This document shows positions 20,682 through 26,164 of a stretch of 64,000 bases of DNA, one piece after another. Made by a program: the position numbers and the translations under genes. The DNA lies in assembly GCA_047600485.1 (NCBI GenBank), contig JASGKS010000001.1, positions 6,912,259 to 6,976,258 on the forward strand, read 5' to 3'. Below the pieces are notes generated by a model that saw only the letters and a list, made by a program, of their open reading frames with translations, ran no database searches and was not told the origin of the DNA. The stretch is from Archangium sp. (GTDB lineage Bacteria; Myxococcota; Myxococcia; Myxococcales; Myxococcaceae). Numbering within the stretch: the first letter of the stretch is position 1; each line of letters begins with the position of its first letter.

Positions 20682-20815
20682 TTCATGCTCCTGTTTTTTT
20701 CCGGCCGGGCGGCGCGGCGGAGCAATGCGCGTGCCTCGTGTCTCTCGTGCGCGCACCCCGCGCGAGTTGTCGGGAACAGGCGACAGGTGTCGTGCGCAGC
20801 CGACAGAATGCGCGC

Positions 20816-21265
20816 GTGAAATTCGACGACGCGTCCTGGCACTACGGCGGCAAATTTCCCAAAGGGCTGCCGAAGGAAAATGGCGGCACGCACATCGGTC
20901 TGTTCGTCGCGTGGTGCATCGAGCACGACCTCATCGGACGCAGGCACTTCACCGAGTCACGCAAACAAGTCGACCGCGTGCTCGCGCGGAAGATGACGGG
21001 CCGCGACTTTCTCTTCGAGGTGCTCGACGAGAAGTTCTGCGACGAGGACCTCGTGCCGCTCGGCAGAAAGTTCACGCGCGCCTACTTCAACGACGGCAAG
21101 TACATCGACCACTACCTGAAGACCTTCGGCGTGAAGGACGACGGCTCGGTCTACACGGTGAAGGACACCTGGGAGAACTACGAGCGGCTCAAGCCGGCCA
21201 TCGAGAAAGCGTTCGGCGCGTGGGCGAAGAAGAACCCGTTCGCGGCTCGCAAGAAGCGTCGCTGA
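20816..21265 (+). CDS. Hypothetical cytoplasmic protein (conserved FDDASWHYGGKFP N-terminus)
   Basis: Open frame with GC3 bias. Probable GTG start at 20816; the track ORF starts at 20738. Confidence 0.45.
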   Translation: MKFDDASWHYGGKFPKGLPKENGGTHIGLFVAWCIEHDLIGRRHFTESRKQVDRVLARKMTGRDFLFEVLDEKFCDEDLVPLGRKFTRAYFNDGKYIDHYLKTFGVKDDGSVYTVKDTWENYERLKPAIEKAFGAWAKKNPFAARKKRR

Positions 21266-22156
21266 TCAGCAGTGGCTCGCCGCGAAATTGCCGGCGATGA
21301 AATCAGCGAGCAACCGCACGCGCGCTGGCACGTACTTCGACGCGGGCATCACGAGGTGAACGCCACCGCCGCTGATGCTCCACTCGGGCAACACGCGCTC
21401 GAACGGCGGAGCACCCTTCTTCGCGCACGCCGACGTCATGAAGATGGGCATCAACCCGATGCCGGTGCCGCGCGCGGTGATGGCGCGCATGAAGCCGAAG
21501 TCGTCGACGCTCAACGCGCCGCGCACCGTCACTTCGCGCTCGTCGTCACGCCGCGAGAGCTTCAGCCGCGCCTTGCCCTGACGGCCGCGGAACAGAATCA
21601 GCTCGTGCTCTGCAAGGGCGTCGACGTTCCTCGGCGCGCCGTGCTTGCGCACGTACTCAGGCGTCGCGAACAGCCCGAGGTCCGACTGCGCGAGCTTGCG
21701 TGAGATGAGCGACGAGTCGTCGAGCCGACCCGCACGCAGCGCGAGGTCGATGCCTTCCTCGATGAGATTCACCTGGCGGTTGGTCACCACCACCTCGACG
21801 TGAATGTTCGGGTGGTCCTTCGAGAAGCGCGCGAGCAGCTCGGCCATCGGGTACGCGTCGTTGGGCAGTGAGAGCCGCACCACGCCGCTCGCGTCGTCGG
21901 TGGCGTGACCCACCTCGGCCTGCGCTTCTTCGAGCGCCGCGCGCGCTGCCTTCGCCCGCTCGTAGAACGCGCGACCCGCTTCGGTCAGCTCGAGTGAACG
22001 CGTGGTGCGCTGCAGAAGCTGCGTCTCGAGCTCCTTCTCCAGCGAAGTGACGGCGCGGCTCGCAGTCGACTTCGGCACGCCGAGCGACTTCGCGGCGGCG
22101 GTAAAGCTCCCTTGATCCACCACCTTGAGGAAGACGGGAACGCGGCTCCAATCCAT
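21266..22156 (-). CDS. LysR-family transcriptional regulator
   Basis: N-terminal HTH (FLKVVDQGSFTAAAKSLGVPKSTASR) and a LysR substrate-binding domain. Start taken at MDWSRV (ATG 22156). Divergent from the doxX-rSAM operon. Confidence 0.8.
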   Translation of the reverse strand: MDWSRVPVFLKVVDQGSFTAAAKSLGVPKSTASRAVTSLEKELETQLLQRTTRSLELTEAGRAFYERAKAARAALEEAQAEVGHATDDASGVVRLSLPNDAYPMAELLARFSKDHPNIHVEVVVTNRQVNLIEEGIDLALRAGRLDDSSLISRKLAQSDLGLFATPEYVRKHGAPRNVDALAEHELILFRGRQGKARLKLSRRDDEREVTVRGALSVDDFGFMRAITARGTGIGLMPIFMTSACAKKGAPPFERVLPEWSISGGGVHLVMPASKYVPARVRLLADFIAGNFAASHC

Positions 22157-22231
22157 GTTGCATGAATAGCAACAAAGCGTTCGAAACGCACAATCTAGTG
22201 CTGCTGGCGCAACGGCCTTATTCGTGCGCCC

Positions 22232-22666
22232 ATGACCAAATACCTCGCGCACCTTCCCCGCCTCTTCCTGGGCCTCGTCTTCACCGTGTTCGGCATCGCA
22301 GGGTTGTTTCACCTGATGCCGCAGCCGCCGCTCCCCGAGGGCATCGCCGGCACGTACATCTCCGCGCTCGGCGGCACGTACCTCTTCACGCTGGTGAAGC
22401 TCACCGAGGTGGTGGCCGGCGTGCTGTTCCTCGCCAACCGCTTCAGCGCGCTCGCCGCGATTCTCATCGCGCCGGTGGTGGTGAACATCTTCGCGGCGCA
22501 CGCCTTCGTGCTGCCCGGCGGTCTGGGCCTGCCCATCGCGCTCGTCGCCGCGCTGGTCTTCGTGGCCTGGCAGCGTCGTGAGGCCTACCGCCCGCTGTTC
22601 GTCGCGAAGACGCAGACGGCTGCGGCGGCTTCCGAGCCGAGCGCCCGCACGCTCGCGGCGGCCTGA
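22232..22666 (+). CDS. DoxX-family membrane protein
   Basis: About 140 aa with four TM helices. First gene of the operon with the rSAM enzyme (21-bp gap). Confidence 0.65.
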   Translation: MTKYLAHLPRLFLGLVFTVFGIAGLFHLMPQPPLPEGIAGTYISALGGTYLFTLVKLTEVVAGVLFLANRFSALAAILIAPVVVNIFAAHAFVLPGGLGLPIALVAALVFVAWQRREAYRPLFVAKTQTAAAASEPSARTLAAA

Positions 22667-22687
22667 TTCGTCTACAGTGCGCGGCTC

Positions 22688-23989
22688 GTGACTGCGCCGC
22701 GCCACACGCTCCGACTCGAGGCTGATCGCGCGCTGCTCTACGACCGCGTCGCGCATCAGTACTTCCCGCTCAGCGCCGGCGAGGCGTTCCTCTGCACCGC
22801 CGCTGCCGAGGTCGGGCTCGACGAAGCGACGCGCCTGCTCGCGCAGAAAATCGGCGACGACGACGCGAACGACTTTCGCGCGCAGCTCGAAGACGACGGA
22901 GCGCTGAACGAAAACGGCTTCACCGGCCGGCTCCTCGAGCAGCGCGACATCAAGGGTGCGTACGCCGCTCCGCTGGTGTGCCACCTGGGCGTGACGCTGG
23001 CGTGCAACTTCGCGTGCAACCACTGCTACTCGTCGAGCGGCCAGCGCGCGAAAGACGAGCTCACGCTCGACGACATCAAGGGCCTCGTCGATCAGCTCGT
23101 CGACATCGGCTGCATGAAGCTGGTGCTCGGCGGCGGCGAACCGTTCCTCCGCAAGGAACTGGCCGACATCGTCGCGTACGCCGATTCGCGCGGAGTCGAC
23201 TGCTTCGTCCACACCAACGCCTCGCTGGTGCGCGCTGAAGTCCTCGAGCGCCTCGCGAAGACGCCGCCCGCCTCACTCGCCGTCAGCCTCGACGGCCCCG
23301 ACGCGCACACCAACGACCGCGTGCGCGGACCCAAAGCGTTCGAGAAGACGATGAAGGGCCTCGAGGTGCTGCGCGCCAATTGGCCGCACGGCTTCAACCT
23401 CTCGGTCACCATCACGCCCGAGAACGCCACGCTCACACCGCAGCTCGTCGCGCTCGCGAAGGAACAGGGCGCCAACGTGTTGCTGCTGCGACCCGCGTAC
23501 CCCGCCGGCGAAGCGATGAAGGACACCTCGCTCATCTGCGACCGCGAGACGTTCGCGCGCGCCATCGACCTCGCACGGCCCGAAGCGAAGAAGCTCGGCG
23601 TCACGCTCGACGCGCCGCACCCGCATGAGCAGGGCGAGCCCGACTTCGAAGGCTTCGGCTGCGTCGCGGCGCGCGTGGTGCTCGGTGTCGACCCGCGCGG
23701 CAACGTCACGCCGTGCCTCAATCTCCCGGGCGGCTTCGACAGCGGCAACATCAAGGAGAAGAAGCTGCAAGACCTCTGGAAGAAGGGTCGCGGCTTCGTG
23801 CTGCTGCGCGCGCAGGAAGCGGGTCCTCAGTGCAGCACCTGCAAGCACTACGAGACCTGTCGCGGCGGCTGCCGCGTGCGCGCCCTCTATTCCGAGAACG
23901 GTCTCGGTGGCCCCGACAGTTGGTGTCACTATGAGCCGCGCGAAGTTTCGAAGCAGACCCGCCGCACACGCACAGGAGCAACACGATGA
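22688..23989 (+). CDS. Radical SAM/SPASM-domain peptide-modifying enzyme with N-terminal PqqD-like RRE
   Basis: CNFACNHC (Cx3Cx2C); GGEPFL; twitch/SPASM Cys cluster (CLNLPGG...CSTCKHYETCRGGCRVRA...WCHYEP). N-terminal segment of about 95 aa is RRE-like (YFPLSAGEAFL...). Confidence 0.8.
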   Translation: MTAPRHTLRLEADRALLYDRVAHQYFPLSAGEAFLCTAAAEVGLDEATRLLAQKIGDDDANDFRAQLEDDGALNENGFTGRLLEQRDIKGAYAAPLVCHLGVTLACNFACNHCYSSSGQRAKDELTLDDIKGLVDQLVDIGCMKLVLGGGEPFLRKELADIVAYADSRGVDCFVHTNASLVRAEVLERLAKTPPASLAVSLDGPDAHTNDRVRGPKAFEKTMKGLEVLRANWPHGFNLSVTITPENATLTPQLVALAKEQGANVLLLRPAYPAGEAMKDTSLICDRETFARAIDLARPEAKKLGVTLDAPHPHEQGEPDFEGFGCVAARVVLGVDPRGNVTPCLNLPGGFDSGNIKEKKLQDLWKKGRGFVLLRAQEAGPQCSTCKHYETCRGGCRVRALYSENGLGGPDSWCHYEPREVSKQTRRTRTGATR

Positions 23990-24306
23990 CGGTTCGACGA
24001 ACGGGCACTCGCACGCCGGTGTCCAGTGGTTGTGGTTCTTCTTCGACGCGCGGAACTTCGAAGCCGTCGCCGCGCAAGCCGGTCGCCACGGGCTGCGGCA
24101 CCTCGTCGAGCTCGGGCAGCAAGGGCTGGTCGGCGAAGACCGGCGGCAAGGTGAGCGACAAGGTCAGCCAGCGCAGCAAGGACCTGCTCGACAAGGCCGA
24201 GGGCAAGACCGGGCGTCGCACCACGTCGAGCGGCTGCGGCACGTCGTCGCCGAGCAAGCCGTCGCCGCACAAGCCCACTCCGAAGCCGACGCGCACGGGG
24301 TGCTGA
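23986..24306 (+). CDS. Small basic Ser/Thr/Pro-rich peptide with repeated GCG(S/T)SS motifs (candidate rSAM substrate)
   Basis: ATGA overlap with the rSAM stop. High GC3 in this frame. SGCGSSS, TGCGTSSSS, SGCGTSSPS and a C-terminal TGC. No signal peptide. Confidence 0.5.
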   Translation: MTVRRTGTRTPVSSGCGSSSTRGTSKPSPRKPVATGCGTSSSSGSKGWSAKTGGKVSDKVSQRSKDLLDKAEGKTGRRTTSSGCGTSSPSKPSPHKPTPKPTRTGC

Positions 24307-24307
24307 G

Positions 24308-24613
24308 ATGAACCAGCACCGACTGTCCCGCTTGAAGCGATTGGCGACGGGCGCAGCGTTGATCAGCTCCACGCTCGCGCTCGGCGAAGACGTCAAGGCG
24401 CCGCCCGTGAACCCGGGCCCGCCGACTCGCATGAACTCACCGGGCAAGCAGAAGCCGGTGGCGGTCGACGCGGGCGTCGTCGATGCGGGCGTGACCGAAG
24501 AACCGGTGAAGCCCGATGACGGCCCGCACGTGAACAGCCCGCCGCCGCAGAAGCCCATTGCGAAGCCGCGGCCGCCGAACGTGAACTCGCCGCCTCAGCC
24601 GACCACGAAGTGA
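24308..24613 (+). CDS. Secreted Pro-rich peptide with three (R/H/N)(M/V)NSP..QKP repeats
   Basis: Starts 1 nt after the stop of the preceding peptide. Signal peptide ...ALISSTLALG. High GC3. Confidence 0.5.
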   Translation: MNQHRLSRLKRLATGAALISSTLALGEDVKAPPVNPGPPTRMNSPGKQKPVAVDAGVVDAGVTEEPVKPDDGPHVNSPPPQKPIAKPRPPNVNSPPQPTTK

Positions 24614-24663: not shown

Positions 24664-25281
24664 ATGTCACCGTCGCTCCCCGCTCTCCGCGCCGCCCTTC
24701 GTGCTCGGCCACGAGACGCGGCGTTGCGCGCGGTGTTCGCCGATTTTCTGCTCGAGCGTGGCGACCCCAGAGGCCTCTTCATTCAGGCGCAGCGCGAAGG
24801 ACGCGTCGAAGAAGCGCAGCGCCTGCTCGAGAAATACCGCGTCCACTTCGTTCACCCGTTGCCGCATGGCGCTGACGTGGACTTCGTCGATGGCTTCGTC
24901 GACGCGTGGCGCACGACGCCCGACGAATTTCGCCGCGCGGGCAGAAGGATGTTGCGACACCTGCCGCTGCGCTCGCTCACCTTGAGCGGAGTGCGCCAGG
25001 TCGACCTCCAATACCTGCTCGCCTCGGAAGGTCTGGAGTGCGTCACCACGCTCGTGCTCCACCAGCTGCGCATCGGCGCGCTGCAGTTGCTGGCGAGCAA
25101 CGACTTGCCGCACGTGCGCGTGCTGCAGGTCTCCGGCGCGCTGATGGAATCGCAGCTCGACGCGCTGCCCGACACCGACGTCGCGCGCCGGCTGCGCAGA
25201 GCCGCGACGCCACCGACCCGCGGCCGCCCGTTCTTCTGGATCGACGAGCGCTTCGAGTCACCGTTCGCGCAGTTGGGCTAG
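24664..25281 (+). CDS. TIGR02996-like repeat-companion/LRR protein (short paralog)
   Basis: LRAVFADFLLERGDPRGLFI motif near the N-terminus. Confidence 0.5.
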   Translation: MSPSLPALRAALRARPRDAALRAVFADFLLERGDPRGLFIQAQREGRVEEAQRLLEKYRVHFVHPLPHGADVDFVDGFVDAWRTTPDEFRRAGRRMLRHLPLRSLTLSGVRQVDLQYLLASEGLECVTTLVLHQLRIGALQLLASNDLPHVRVLQVSGALMESQLDALPDTDVARRLRRAATPPTRGRPFFWIDERFESPFAQLG

Positions 25282-25294
25282 ACCTCGCGCTCGC

Positions 25295-26164
25295 GTGACG
25301 AGCACCATCTTCAGCCGCACCGCCGTTCCCGATGGAGACACGCTCGGGCTCACGCGCGAACACGAGCTCGTCGCGCAGCCGCGCAAGGGCACCATCGACT
25401 GGGCGTCGTTCAATCGCTCACAGTTCGATGAAGCGAGCCTCGAGACCGCGCGCACGTTGTGGAGTCACCGCGCCTTCACCGAGTTCCACTCGCTCACGCA
25501 CTTCTCGCAGCTCAGCTCACAGCTGCATCTGCTCGGCGCGCCGCTCGACTGGAGCGGTGCCTTCGCGCGCATGGTGAGCGACGAGGTACGCCACACCGAG
25601 CTGTGTCTGCGAATGGTCGAAGCGCTCGGCGGCTCGCGAGACCTCACGCTTCCTTCGCTCGACGGCGTTCATCAGACCGTTCCGCAGGGCACGCTCCGCG
25701 CGCACGTGCGTCGCACCGTCATCAGCGCGTTCTGCATCGGCGAGACGCTCTCGGGGCGCATGTTCAAGCGCTGCCTCGCGGGCGCGAACGTGCCGCTGGC
25801 GCGCGACGTGGTGACCGCCATTCTCGTCGACGAGACGTTCCACTCCGAGCTGGGTTGGGAATTGGGCGCGCTCCTGATGCGGCCCGACGAGGCGGTCGCG
25901 ACGGAAGTCGCCGCGCTCGAAGCCGAGCTGCCGAAGCTGTTCGCTGATTTTGCGCAGCAGTGTCTGGCGACGAAGAGCGCGGCCTGGGCGCGCGCGCAAC
26001 CCGAGTTCGACGACGGTCCCAACTTCGGCACCATGAGCACCGCGGGCTACGCACACGCCTTCTACGAGGGCATGGAGCACGACGTGGTGCCGGGCCTGGA
26101 AGCCATCGGACTGGGTCACGCGCGCGCAGCGTGGGAGCAATTCATCGCCACGCGCCGCTATTGA
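25295..26164 (+). CDS. Ferritin-like (di-iron, two ExxH) domain protein
   Basis: DEVRHTELCLRM and DETFHSELGWELG suggest di-iron carboxylate ligands. Start uncertain. Confidence 0.5.
   Translation: MTSTIFSRTAVPDGDTLGLTREHELVAQPRKGTIDWASFNRSQFDEASLETARTLWSHRAFTEFHSLTHFSQLSSQLHLLGAPLDWSGAFARMVSDEVRHTELCLRMVEALGGSRDLTLPSLDGVHQTVPQGTLRAHVRRTVISAFCIGETLSGRMFKRCLAGANVPLARDVVTAILVDETFHSELGWELGALLMRPDEAVATEVAALEAELPKLFADFAQQCLATKSAAWARAQPEFDDGPNFGTMSTAGYAHAFYEGMEHDVVPGLEAIGLGHARAAWEQFIATRRY

Follow-up and report, generated by a model that had tools for sequence, protein, structure and literature searches.

We describe here a two-gene cassette lying within a 64,000-nucleotide (nt) stretch of myxobacterial DNA (Archangium sp.; GenBank assembly GCA_047600485.1, contig JASGKS010000001.1; ‘the window’, to whose numbering coordinates refer unless another locus is named), in which the gene for a 433-amino-acid (aa) radical S-adenosylmethionine (SAM)/SPASM enzyme runs directly into one for a 106-aa, Cys-containing small protein. 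On balance we favour a reading in which the enzyme is a maturase with its own RiPP recognition element (RRE; RiPP, ribosomally synthesised and post-translationally modified peptide), the translationally coupled 106-aa protein is its substrate, and modification takes place at the Cys residues of a repeated motif, probably to give a thioether. The parts of this reading differ in strength: that the enzyme modifies the 106-aa protein is highly probable, and that the modification sits at the Cys motif is likely, whilst a thioether product falls a little short of an even chance. Neither partner has a curated family, and we regard the pair as a genuine, uncharacterised variant of radical SAM/SPASM peptide maturation. 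A full-text search of the literature found no description of such an enzyme/Cys-protein system; the motif strings VSTGCG, STGCGS and PVSTGC were absent from the literature searched, where RTGC occurred only as unrelated acronyms. A survey of radical SAM-SPASM RiPP clusters (PMC9062424) contains no mention of Myxococcota or Deltaproteobacteria, and the sections of it drawn on here do not describe the system.

The pair recurs across the enzyme family. We compared 23 loci for which DNA was to hand—the window, 14 loci from GTDB and eight of nine contexts traced by exact-protein look-ups, the P0053 locus being left out—and in 18 of them a homologous Cys-motif protein adjoins the enzyme, within 2.5 kb: downstream in 15, upstream in two (L009 and L080) and, in L089, separated from it by a single gene; the stop and start codons of the pair usually overlapping or nearly so. 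Partners are of two classes: short ‘class A’ proteins, orthologs of the window’s own, which stand beside the enzyme in L001–L006 and L010, and ‘class B’ proteins, found in L007, L008, L009, L011, L012, L080, L081, L086, L088 and L089. A different partner, the Tyr-Gly protein described below, is present in four of the 23 loci. The original prediction, made from the letters of the window, had hung on whether homologs of the enzyme elsewhere have Cys-motif proteins next to them, and most of them do. In an all-against-all comparison of neighbouring genes, the enzyme’s gene cluster is the only one common to more than three loci; no protease, transporter/exporter, DoxX or LysR gene is conserved in that comparison, a DoxX-like gene being kept upstream only in L003. 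The conserved unit is two genes only, enzyme and Cys-motif protein, so the DoxX and LysR genes first counted as parts of the system have to be dropped from it. The gene that intervenes in L089 (3891..4712), a single occurrence, encodes a 273-aa polytopic membrane protein ending RRRRAARA, with no Pfam match, whose F-x-x-x-H and H-x-x-x-N strings are reminiscent of CPBP-type intramembrane proteases.

The 106-aa open reading frame (ORF) is coding and conserved. As first read from the sequence, the stop codon of the enzyme overlaps its start (ATGA, 23986..23989), and a single nucleotide separates its own stop from a second small ORF of 101 aa. The G+C content of third codon positions (GC3) is of coding type in both (0.86 and 0.87, respectively; 0.86–0.92 across the proposed frames, in a region of 64–71% GC), and a sliding frame plot changes frame exactly at 23990–24000 and reverses at about 24310; taken together, frame switch and GC3 make both small ORFs look coding. 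Ratios of non-synonymous to synonymous substitution (dN/dS) among class A orthologs are 0.28–0.63, and the ORF is kept, together with its motif, down to 48% identity between enzymes. Class A proteins are rare, forming eight clusters among 1.84 billion representatives, every one of the pattern ‘MTVGKAG...RTGC’; with these values the doubt attached to the original prediction, that the peptide might not be conserved as coding in related genomes, falls away for the 106-aa ORF. The codons of the first motif (24025..24042; AGT GGT TGT GGT TCT TCT) end in T despite the high gene-wide GC3, those of motifs 2 and 3 by contrast reading GGC TGC GGC ACS TCG TCG.

Motif statistics were taken from 25 non-identical partners of both classes, which together hold 96 Cys residues. 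The pattern [S/T]-[G/S/A/H]-C accounts for all but one of these (95/96); V, T or I occupies position −4 at 89 of the 96 sites, position −5 is P at 46, and position +1 is G at 51 and the protein end at 25, Cys being the last residue of every one of the 25 partners. The internal consensus is (R/K)-P-V-S-T-G-C-G, the C-terminal P-x-R-T-G-C being the same motif truncated at its Cys. Partners have between 2 and 6 copies. The smallest set is the terminal Cys and a single site in the N-terminal part, which in class B comes after the helical region; the first internal Cys does not vary in either class. Each of the four Cys of the window’s 106-aa protein sits in [VT]-x-[ST]-G-C, and four [VTI]-x-[ST]-G-C sites would arise by chance in a 106-aa stretch with a probability of about 4e-10, the six-frame translation of the window serving as background. 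In place of the xGCG(S/T)SS string put forward earlier, the defining motif is refined to P-[VTI]-x-[ST]-G-C with an invariant C-terminal Cys. A reading of the [ST]-G-C-G strings as lipobox or MYXO-CTERM was rejected for want of a hydrophobic segment and of any match to a MYXO-CTERM model.

Class A proteins are 75–121 aa long, start ‘MTVGKAG’, and have about 20 Lys plus Arg against 2–4 Asp plus Glu, with 44–65% Ser/Thr/Pro/Gly; the window’s member, at 21 Lys plus Arg and 59% Ser/Thr/Pro/Gly, has no hydrophobic stretch. Class B proteins, 11 among 5.8 billion and all unnamed, extend from 125 to 303 aa (giving 75–303 aa for the substrates as a whole) and combine an N-terminal helical region with an EF-hand-like loop, D-x-[DN]-x-D-G-x-[IL]-x-x-x-E, which suggests Ca2+ binding; against Pfam and NCBIfam they give only sub-threshold EF-hand matches. 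The loop lies between the first Cys motif and the conserved helix, examples being ‘DKDKDGVIDAHE’ and ‘DANQDGEIGYGEA’. Neither the 106-aa nor the 101-aa protein of the window matches a Pfam family or an NCBIfam model (the latter at E ≤ 0.01 for the 106-aa protein). When the class A and class B profiles are aligned with hhalign (probability 95%, E 3e-8), the match spans the helix and the motif that follows it, ‘LS.RS..LLEKA’ in A against ‘LSPLAARLL...VSTGC’ in B, and on this alignment the two classes are homologous over helix plus motif. A neighbour-joining tree of the enzymes puts those paired with class B at the base and those paired with class A in derived positions, for which reason the short substrate of the window type is probably a reduced form.

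Turning to the enzyme, Pfam recognises a Radical_SAM domain (85.7 bits) and a SPASM domain (31.6 bits; cutoff 21.5). The Cys residues of the CX3CX2C motif (C106, C110 and C113) are invariant in an alignment of 35 family members, as are seven Cys of the SPASM domain, the last of which, C413, lies within SWCHYEP; both cluster motifs were correctly called at the outset. An eighth conserved Cys is absent upstream of the SPASM set in the same alignment and, with seven rather than eight, one auxiliary-cluster site would be left without Cys ligation. The N-terminal ~95 residues are conserved family-wide, with Y18 and Y25 invariant. An AlphaFold2 model (predicted local distance difference test, pLDDT, 89; predicted template modelling score, pTM, 0.89) folds residues 6–69 into strands 6–10, 15–19 and 24–28 followed by helices 30–42, 44–55 and 57–69, at pLDDT 89–98; three strands plus three helices being the RRE topology, the enzyme is predicted to have an RRE-type N-terminus. 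Foldseek comparison of the whole model with the PDB ranks SuiB, SkfB and CteB first—all of them RRE-bearing radical SAM peptide maturases—and PqqE, BlsE and the anaerobic sulfatase-maturing enzyme (anSME) after them. The top match, SuiB (5v1t; E 4e-19, TM 0.70, 18% identity), aligns over its full length, RRE included; SkfB (6efn) gives TM 0.66/0.74, and anSME (4k37) is a mid-rank match at E 2.7e-12. A phmmer search of PDB sequences places SkfB first, aligned from residue 4.

The family to which the enzyme belongs is sharply bounded. The enzyme itself matches 77 NCBIfam models, none at its curated cutoff: MftC is the best (TIGR03962; 189.3 bits, cutoff 265), followed by AhbD (152; 500), NirJ2 (151; 500), StsB (NF045574; 111; 625), PqqE (97; 381), SkfB (TIGR04403; 82.3; 300), PapB (NF047865; 65.0; 340) and ACGX (TIGR04340; 63.6; 400), with the anSME, SCIFF-type and QhpD models not among the best 25 of the 77. 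As far as these models can place it, the enzyme lies outside every curated family tested (MftC, SkfB, StsB, PapB, ACGX, PqqE and anSME), in keeping with the original remark that no family could be named. A search of 5.8 billion proteins gathers about 66 members at 294–902 bits and 41–89% identity, beyond which scores fall to 166 bits and to relatives of MftC. Named members all derive from MAGs, assigned to Myxococcota or deltaproteobacteria and in one case labelled Pseudomonadota. Scanned with the family profile, GTDB at one genome per species (185,579 genomes) yields 14 loci, from Myxococcota or deltaproteobacterial metagenome-assembled genomes (MAGs), one labelled Pseudomonadota, and none from a cultured isolate; with no cultured myxobacterium among the family genomes, genetic work would need heterologous expression.

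Enzymes at 41–47% identity form one clade of the neighbour-joining tree, and in four loci (L013, L014, L082 and L087) their partner is a different conserved protein of 300–450 aa. Its C-terminal half is variable, the only invariant residues being a Tyr-Gly within V-[SN]-[NTS]-[GS]-Y-G (in contexts such as ‘VSNSYG’, ‘VNTGYG’, ‘INTGYG’ and ‘RASYGV’). The parallel between V-S-T-G-C-G and V-N-T-G-Y-G, seen over these four loci, is suggestive. A universal GYGS ending for these partners was considered and discarded as it fails for L013 and L087, the internal S-Y-G / G-Y-G alone being invariant. A gene of ~125–135 aa precedes that for the Tyr-Gly protein in both L087 and L082.

In the mechanism that we propose for the Cys-motif pair, the N-terminal RRE would dock the substrate, probably via helix V60–A71 or else via the conserved N-terminus (MTV..G), and the enzyme would then modify four Cys in turn, each within P-[V/T]-x-[S/T]-G-C; the fourth being the obligatory C-terminal residue. 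A Cys thiolate would bind at the auxiliary-cluster site that has no Cys ligand, a 5′-deoxyadenosyl radical would take hydrogen from a nearby motif residue, whether the β-branched one (−4) or the Ser/Thr (−2), and closure of a thioether ring would cost 2 Da, in the manner of sactipeptides and ranthipeptides. A protease or exporter is not conserved, class B substrates look folded, and many substrates are 125–300 aa long; for these reasons the product would be expected to stay intact, probably as a crosslinked small protein rather than a cleaved, secreted antibiotic; the first of these reasons also makes ‘RiPP natural product’ a less certain description than ‘radical SAM-modified small protein’.

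A thioether is favoured on four counts: two thioether synthases, SkfB and CteB, are among the nearest structural relatives; it is Cys residues that are targeted; the conserved β-branched residue at −4 and Ser/Thr at −2 offer acceptor carbons, as in NxxC peptides; and a seven-Cys SPASM domain leaves an auxiliary site able to bind thiolate, as in CteB, in the structure of which the substrate Cys binds the free auxiliary-cluster site. The fused-RRE maturases of sactipeptides and ranthipeptides (SkfB, CteB, PapB and NxxcB) share the domain order RRE – radical SAM – SPASM/twitch with the enzyme, SkfB also being its best PDB sequence match, from the RRE onward, and both SkfB and CteB being among its top folds. 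On the substrate side, the CX3D repeats of PapB substrates are likewise a repeated, Cys-centred short motif, and NxxC peptides have conserved partner residues upstream of Cys, as do the present proteins. The differences are that P-V-S-T-G-C-G with an obligatory C-terminal Cys is not known from any described class, and that the present substrates are far-ranging in length, some with an EF-hand-like domain, in systems with no conserved protease or transporter. For a cassette without protease or exporter the nearest functional analogy is QhpD, which installs several intramolecular Cys thioethers in QhpC, a protein of ~100 aa kept uncleaved; unlike that system, there are no dehydrogenase subunit genes near the present pair, and the acceptor motif is different. 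SuiB, of the SuiB/StrB streptide-type maturases, for all that it is the best overall fold match, RRE included, has eight Cys ligands to its auxiliary clusters and makes a Lys-Trp C–C bond; identity to it is low and the present substrates have no Lys-Trp motif.

Saying this, several observations weigh against a thioether-forming pair of this kind. One locus of the Cys clade, L090, has no recognisable substrate nearby, and among further class B contexts there are two sites with D or P, not S/T, at −2. The likeness of the N-terminal ~95 aa to a PqqD-type RRE, part of the original prediction, holds at the level of fold (AlphaFold2 model, Foldseek and alignment with SkfB) and not at that of sequence models: a Pfam search of the segment, PqqD included, gives zero matches even at E ≤ 10, so that the RRE call rests on fold and not on a sequence hidden Markov model (HMM). 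The closest curated HMM is that of MftC, with SkfB and PapB scoring far lower, and MftC is a C-terminal oxidative decarboxylase and C–C bond former, not a thioether synthase. Neither is the invariant C-terminal Cys explained by a simple intramotif thioether, nor is the V-x-x-[GS]-Y-G of the sister clade predicted by a thiolate-specific mechanism. Other chemistries thus keep some probability: MftC is the best curated HMM, Cys is fixed at the C-terminus, and Tyr takes its place in the motif of the sister clade. There is some chance, although we think it doubtful, that the modification is unprecedented for radical SAM/SPASM enzymes, acting on the X of V-x-[ST]-G-X-G (Cys here, Tyr in the sister clade) with a free C-terminal Cys obligatory: either a new Cys-to-Val/Thr crosslink topology or a Cβ-initiated desaturation or decarboxylation, on a target that is a non-exported polycationic or EF-hand-like protein.

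Of the alternatives, an MftC-like reaction survives best, unlikely though we consider it. Here, abstraction of the Cβ hydrogen and oxidative decarboxylation of the C-terminal Cys, possibly followed by C–C or C–S bonding to −2 or −4, would leave the peptide scaffold with a reactive enethiol or an end group resembling a cofactor; the internal motifs would then be recognition repeats or secondary sites. It would account for MftC leading AhbD and NirJ2 among the curated models, for MftC relatives being the next-nearest proteins outside the family, and for all 25 substrates ending in Cys, as MftA must end in Tyr; two of the sister-clade Tyr-Gly motifs, in L014 and L082, are moreover at or next to the C-terminus. 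The systems are also alike in their seven-Cys SPASM domain and in a strictly conserved C-terminal residue of the substrate, preceded by Gly and with a β-branched residue nearby (MftA ends Gly-Val-Tyr, the present substrate R-T-G-C). Set against this, the MftC score is under its cutoff, there are no mftB/D/E/F-type neighbours, and the RRE is fused, whereas MftC uses a separate MftB for this purpose. The multiple internal motif copies are, furthermore, conserved as strongly as the terminal one, with the first internal Cys invariant, and an internal residue cannot be decarboxylated. The MftC mechanism is summarised in the sections drawn on here of the survey cited above (PMC9062424).

Less probable again is oxidation at Cβ of the motif residue, whether an anSME-like conversion of Cys to formylglycine or an α,β-desaturation, which would place aldehyde or dehydro residues at each motif, Cys or Tyr alike. 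It would account for the exchange of Cys for Tyr at the same T-G-X-G position in sister systems; anSME and MftC both begin with abstraction of a Cβ hydrogen, and anSME is among the fold matches. The sequence models count against it, no anSME model featuring among the best 25 NCBIfam matches, as does the lack of any sulfatase nearby. None of the sites matches the sulfatase motif C/S-x-P/A-x-R (P/A at +2 together with R at +4), and this family has an RRE and seven Cys, unlike anSMEs, which have no RRE and whose auxiliary clusters are fully Cys-ligated; on target motif, RRE and Cys count we reject the anSME reading proper.

It is rather improbable that the small protein is no substrate at all and instead a co-evolving partner (a Cys-rich metal or Fe-S donor, reductant, regulator or Ca-binding adaptor), with the true substrate encoded elsewhere. 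The lack of protease or exporter, the EF-hand-like loop of class B with its sub-threshold Pfam matches and lengths unusual for RiPP precursors would all fit such a role; a fused RRE is, however, a peptide-binding device, a repeated, position-specific motif of variable copy number is typical of multi-site substrates, and translational coupling fits a substrate as well. Finally, that the 106-aa ORF is a chance frame beside a stand-alone housekeeping radical SAM protein can practically be dismissed: every reading frame of this region, at 68% GC, does contain long spurious ORFs, but the GC3 switch falls exactly at the ORF, full-length homologs are present in protein databases, dN/dS is below 1 and conservation of ORF and motif among divergent enzymes already refutes it.

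Uncharacterised radical SAM–peptide pairs are common; to our knowledge, those radical SAM/SPASM–peptide pairs newly characterised so far have each tended to reveal a new crosslink or radical chemistry. The cassette offers a well-defined test system, with two genes, four target sites in 106 aa and an invariant terminal Cys, and with natural variants as controls: 2 to 6 sites, an EF-hand-like domain present or absent, and a sister clade with Tyr for Cys. Should the crosslinked protein prove to be left intact, it would stand beside QhpC among the few cases of protein stapling by a radical SAM enzyme; were the modification new, it would be a new post-translational modification of proteins in Myxococcota and not another antimicrobial RiPP. 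We see the pair as minimal and open to direct test, with fair prospects of new chemistry; it is a good genome-mining lead, though not a conceptual surprise.

Table 1. Features of the cassette and its surroundings in the window, and of partner genes in related loci (loci numbered in their own coordinates)
Feature	Locus	Position	Strand	Basis or remark
LysR gene	window	21266..22171	−	Pfam HTH_1 71 bits, LysR_substrate 118 bits; divergent
144-aa membrane protein, DoxX-like	window	22232..22666		DoxX (PF07681) 21.9 bits, E 2.8e-4; gathering cutoff 23.6
Radical SAM/SPASM maturase (putative), 433 aa	window	22688..23989	+	NCBI MFT3712196.1, ‘radical SAM protein’
N-terminal RRE-like domain, residues ~1–72, linker to ~95	window	22688..22903	+	AlphaFold2 topology, fold matches
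CX3CX2C radical SAM cluster motif, C106/C110/C113	window	23003..23026	+	invariant, 35 family members
SPASM domain, invariant C325, C343, C382, C385, C391, C395, C413	window	23660..23926	+	family alignment; Pfam SPASM 325–386
AGGAG ribosome-binding site of 106-aa gene, within end of enzyme gene	window	23974..23978	+	sequence; 7 nt before ATG 23986
106-aa class A substrate candidate, polycationic, S/T/P/G-rich	window	23986..24306	+	NCBI MFT3712197.1, hypothetical protein
Motif 1, P-V-S-S-G-C-G, Cys16	window	24016..24036	+	C16 and G17 invariant in class A
Motif 2, P-V-A-T-G-C-G, Cys37	window	24079..24099	+	nearly invariant in class A
Helical segment V-S-Q-R-S-K-D-L-L-D-K-A, candidate RRE recognition element	window	24163..24198	+	class A/B profile alignment; putative binding role
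Motif 3, T-T-S-S-G-C-G, Cys84	window	24220..24240	+	C84 invariant in class A
C-terminal motif P-T-R-T-G-C, Cys106 (final residue)	window	24286..24303	+	R-T-G-C invariant in class A
101-aa NSP-repeat peptide with signal peptide	window	24308..24613		HVNSP-type repeats; NCBI hypothetical protein
205-aa TIGR02996-domain protein	window	24664..25281		TIGR02996 36.5 bits, cutoff 29.05
Ferritin-like diiron protein, ~288 aa	window	25295..26164		family naming, fold match
Tyr-Gly partner	L087	1757..3001	enzyme’s strand	overlapping stop/start
Tyr-Gly partner	L082	5321..6670	−	convergent; ends ‘...SSSYGS*’
Tyr-Gly partner	L013	6332..7579	−	convergent
Tyr-Gly partner	L014	6375..7289	−	convergent; ends ‘...RDGYGS*’
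Peptide + ferritin-like pair	L083	2173..3355		
Peptide + ferritin-like pair	L084	2002..3379		
Peptide + ferritin-like pair	L085	2110..3346		
Peptide + ferritin-like pair	L001	6653..7787		

All of the ORFs named in the original prediction are present in the window at the positions it gave (Table 1). Upstream of the cassette, the divergent LysR gene is upheld by its Pfam matches and the 21-nt gap between the DoxX-like and enzyme genes is as described, the DoxX assignment itself falling under its gathering cutoff. A gene for a DUF7832 protein (20738..21265; 124.6 bits) abuts the 3′ (stop-codon) end of LysR, which is convergent with it, and appears unrelated to the enzyme/substrate pair. Between 21900 and 26400 a scan for sigma-70 promoters returned none and an intrinsic terminator scan one terminator-like site, fewer than in shuffled sequence.

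The 101-aa peptide had been taken as the second of two peptides coupled to the enzyme, an assignment that we revise. Its signal peptide leads into (H/N/M)-V-N-S-P repeats. Outside the window, such a peptide comes after the Cys protein in just the two closest relatives, L001 and L003, and in all three cases a ~288-aa protein accompanies it. This protein is one of a Myxococcota family that numbers more than 365 and goes by the name ‘ferritin-like domain-containing protein’, some members matching PF11583. In three loci with no radical SAM gene called within 2.5-kb flanks (Labilithrix and other MAGs), a small secreted peptide or lipoprotein with 4–5 [H/R/T/S]-[V/I/M]-N-[S/A]-P repeats ends 4–8 nt upstream of the ferritin-like gene, whose product is of ~285 aa; because of this pairing we assign the second peptide as the partner of the ferritin-like gene, not of the radical SAM enzyme. 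As a candidate substrate of the latter it was rejected, being absent beyond the two closest loci.

An E / E-x-x-H / E / E-x-x-H set (diiron ligands) is invariant in the ferritin-like protein, whose fold is predicted with confidence (pLDDT 90) and weakly resembles those of diiron oxygenases such as aldehyde-deformylating oxygenase, PaaAC, R2lox and VlmB, the best match being at E 3e-3 and TM 0.52/0.66. Together with the HVNSP peptide it may constitute an undescribed peptide-oxidation pair; one more widespread than the radical SAM pair and equally undescribed. The TIGR02996 gene stands between the HVNSP peptide and ferritin-like genes in the window and in L003 (6121..6807), and not in L001.

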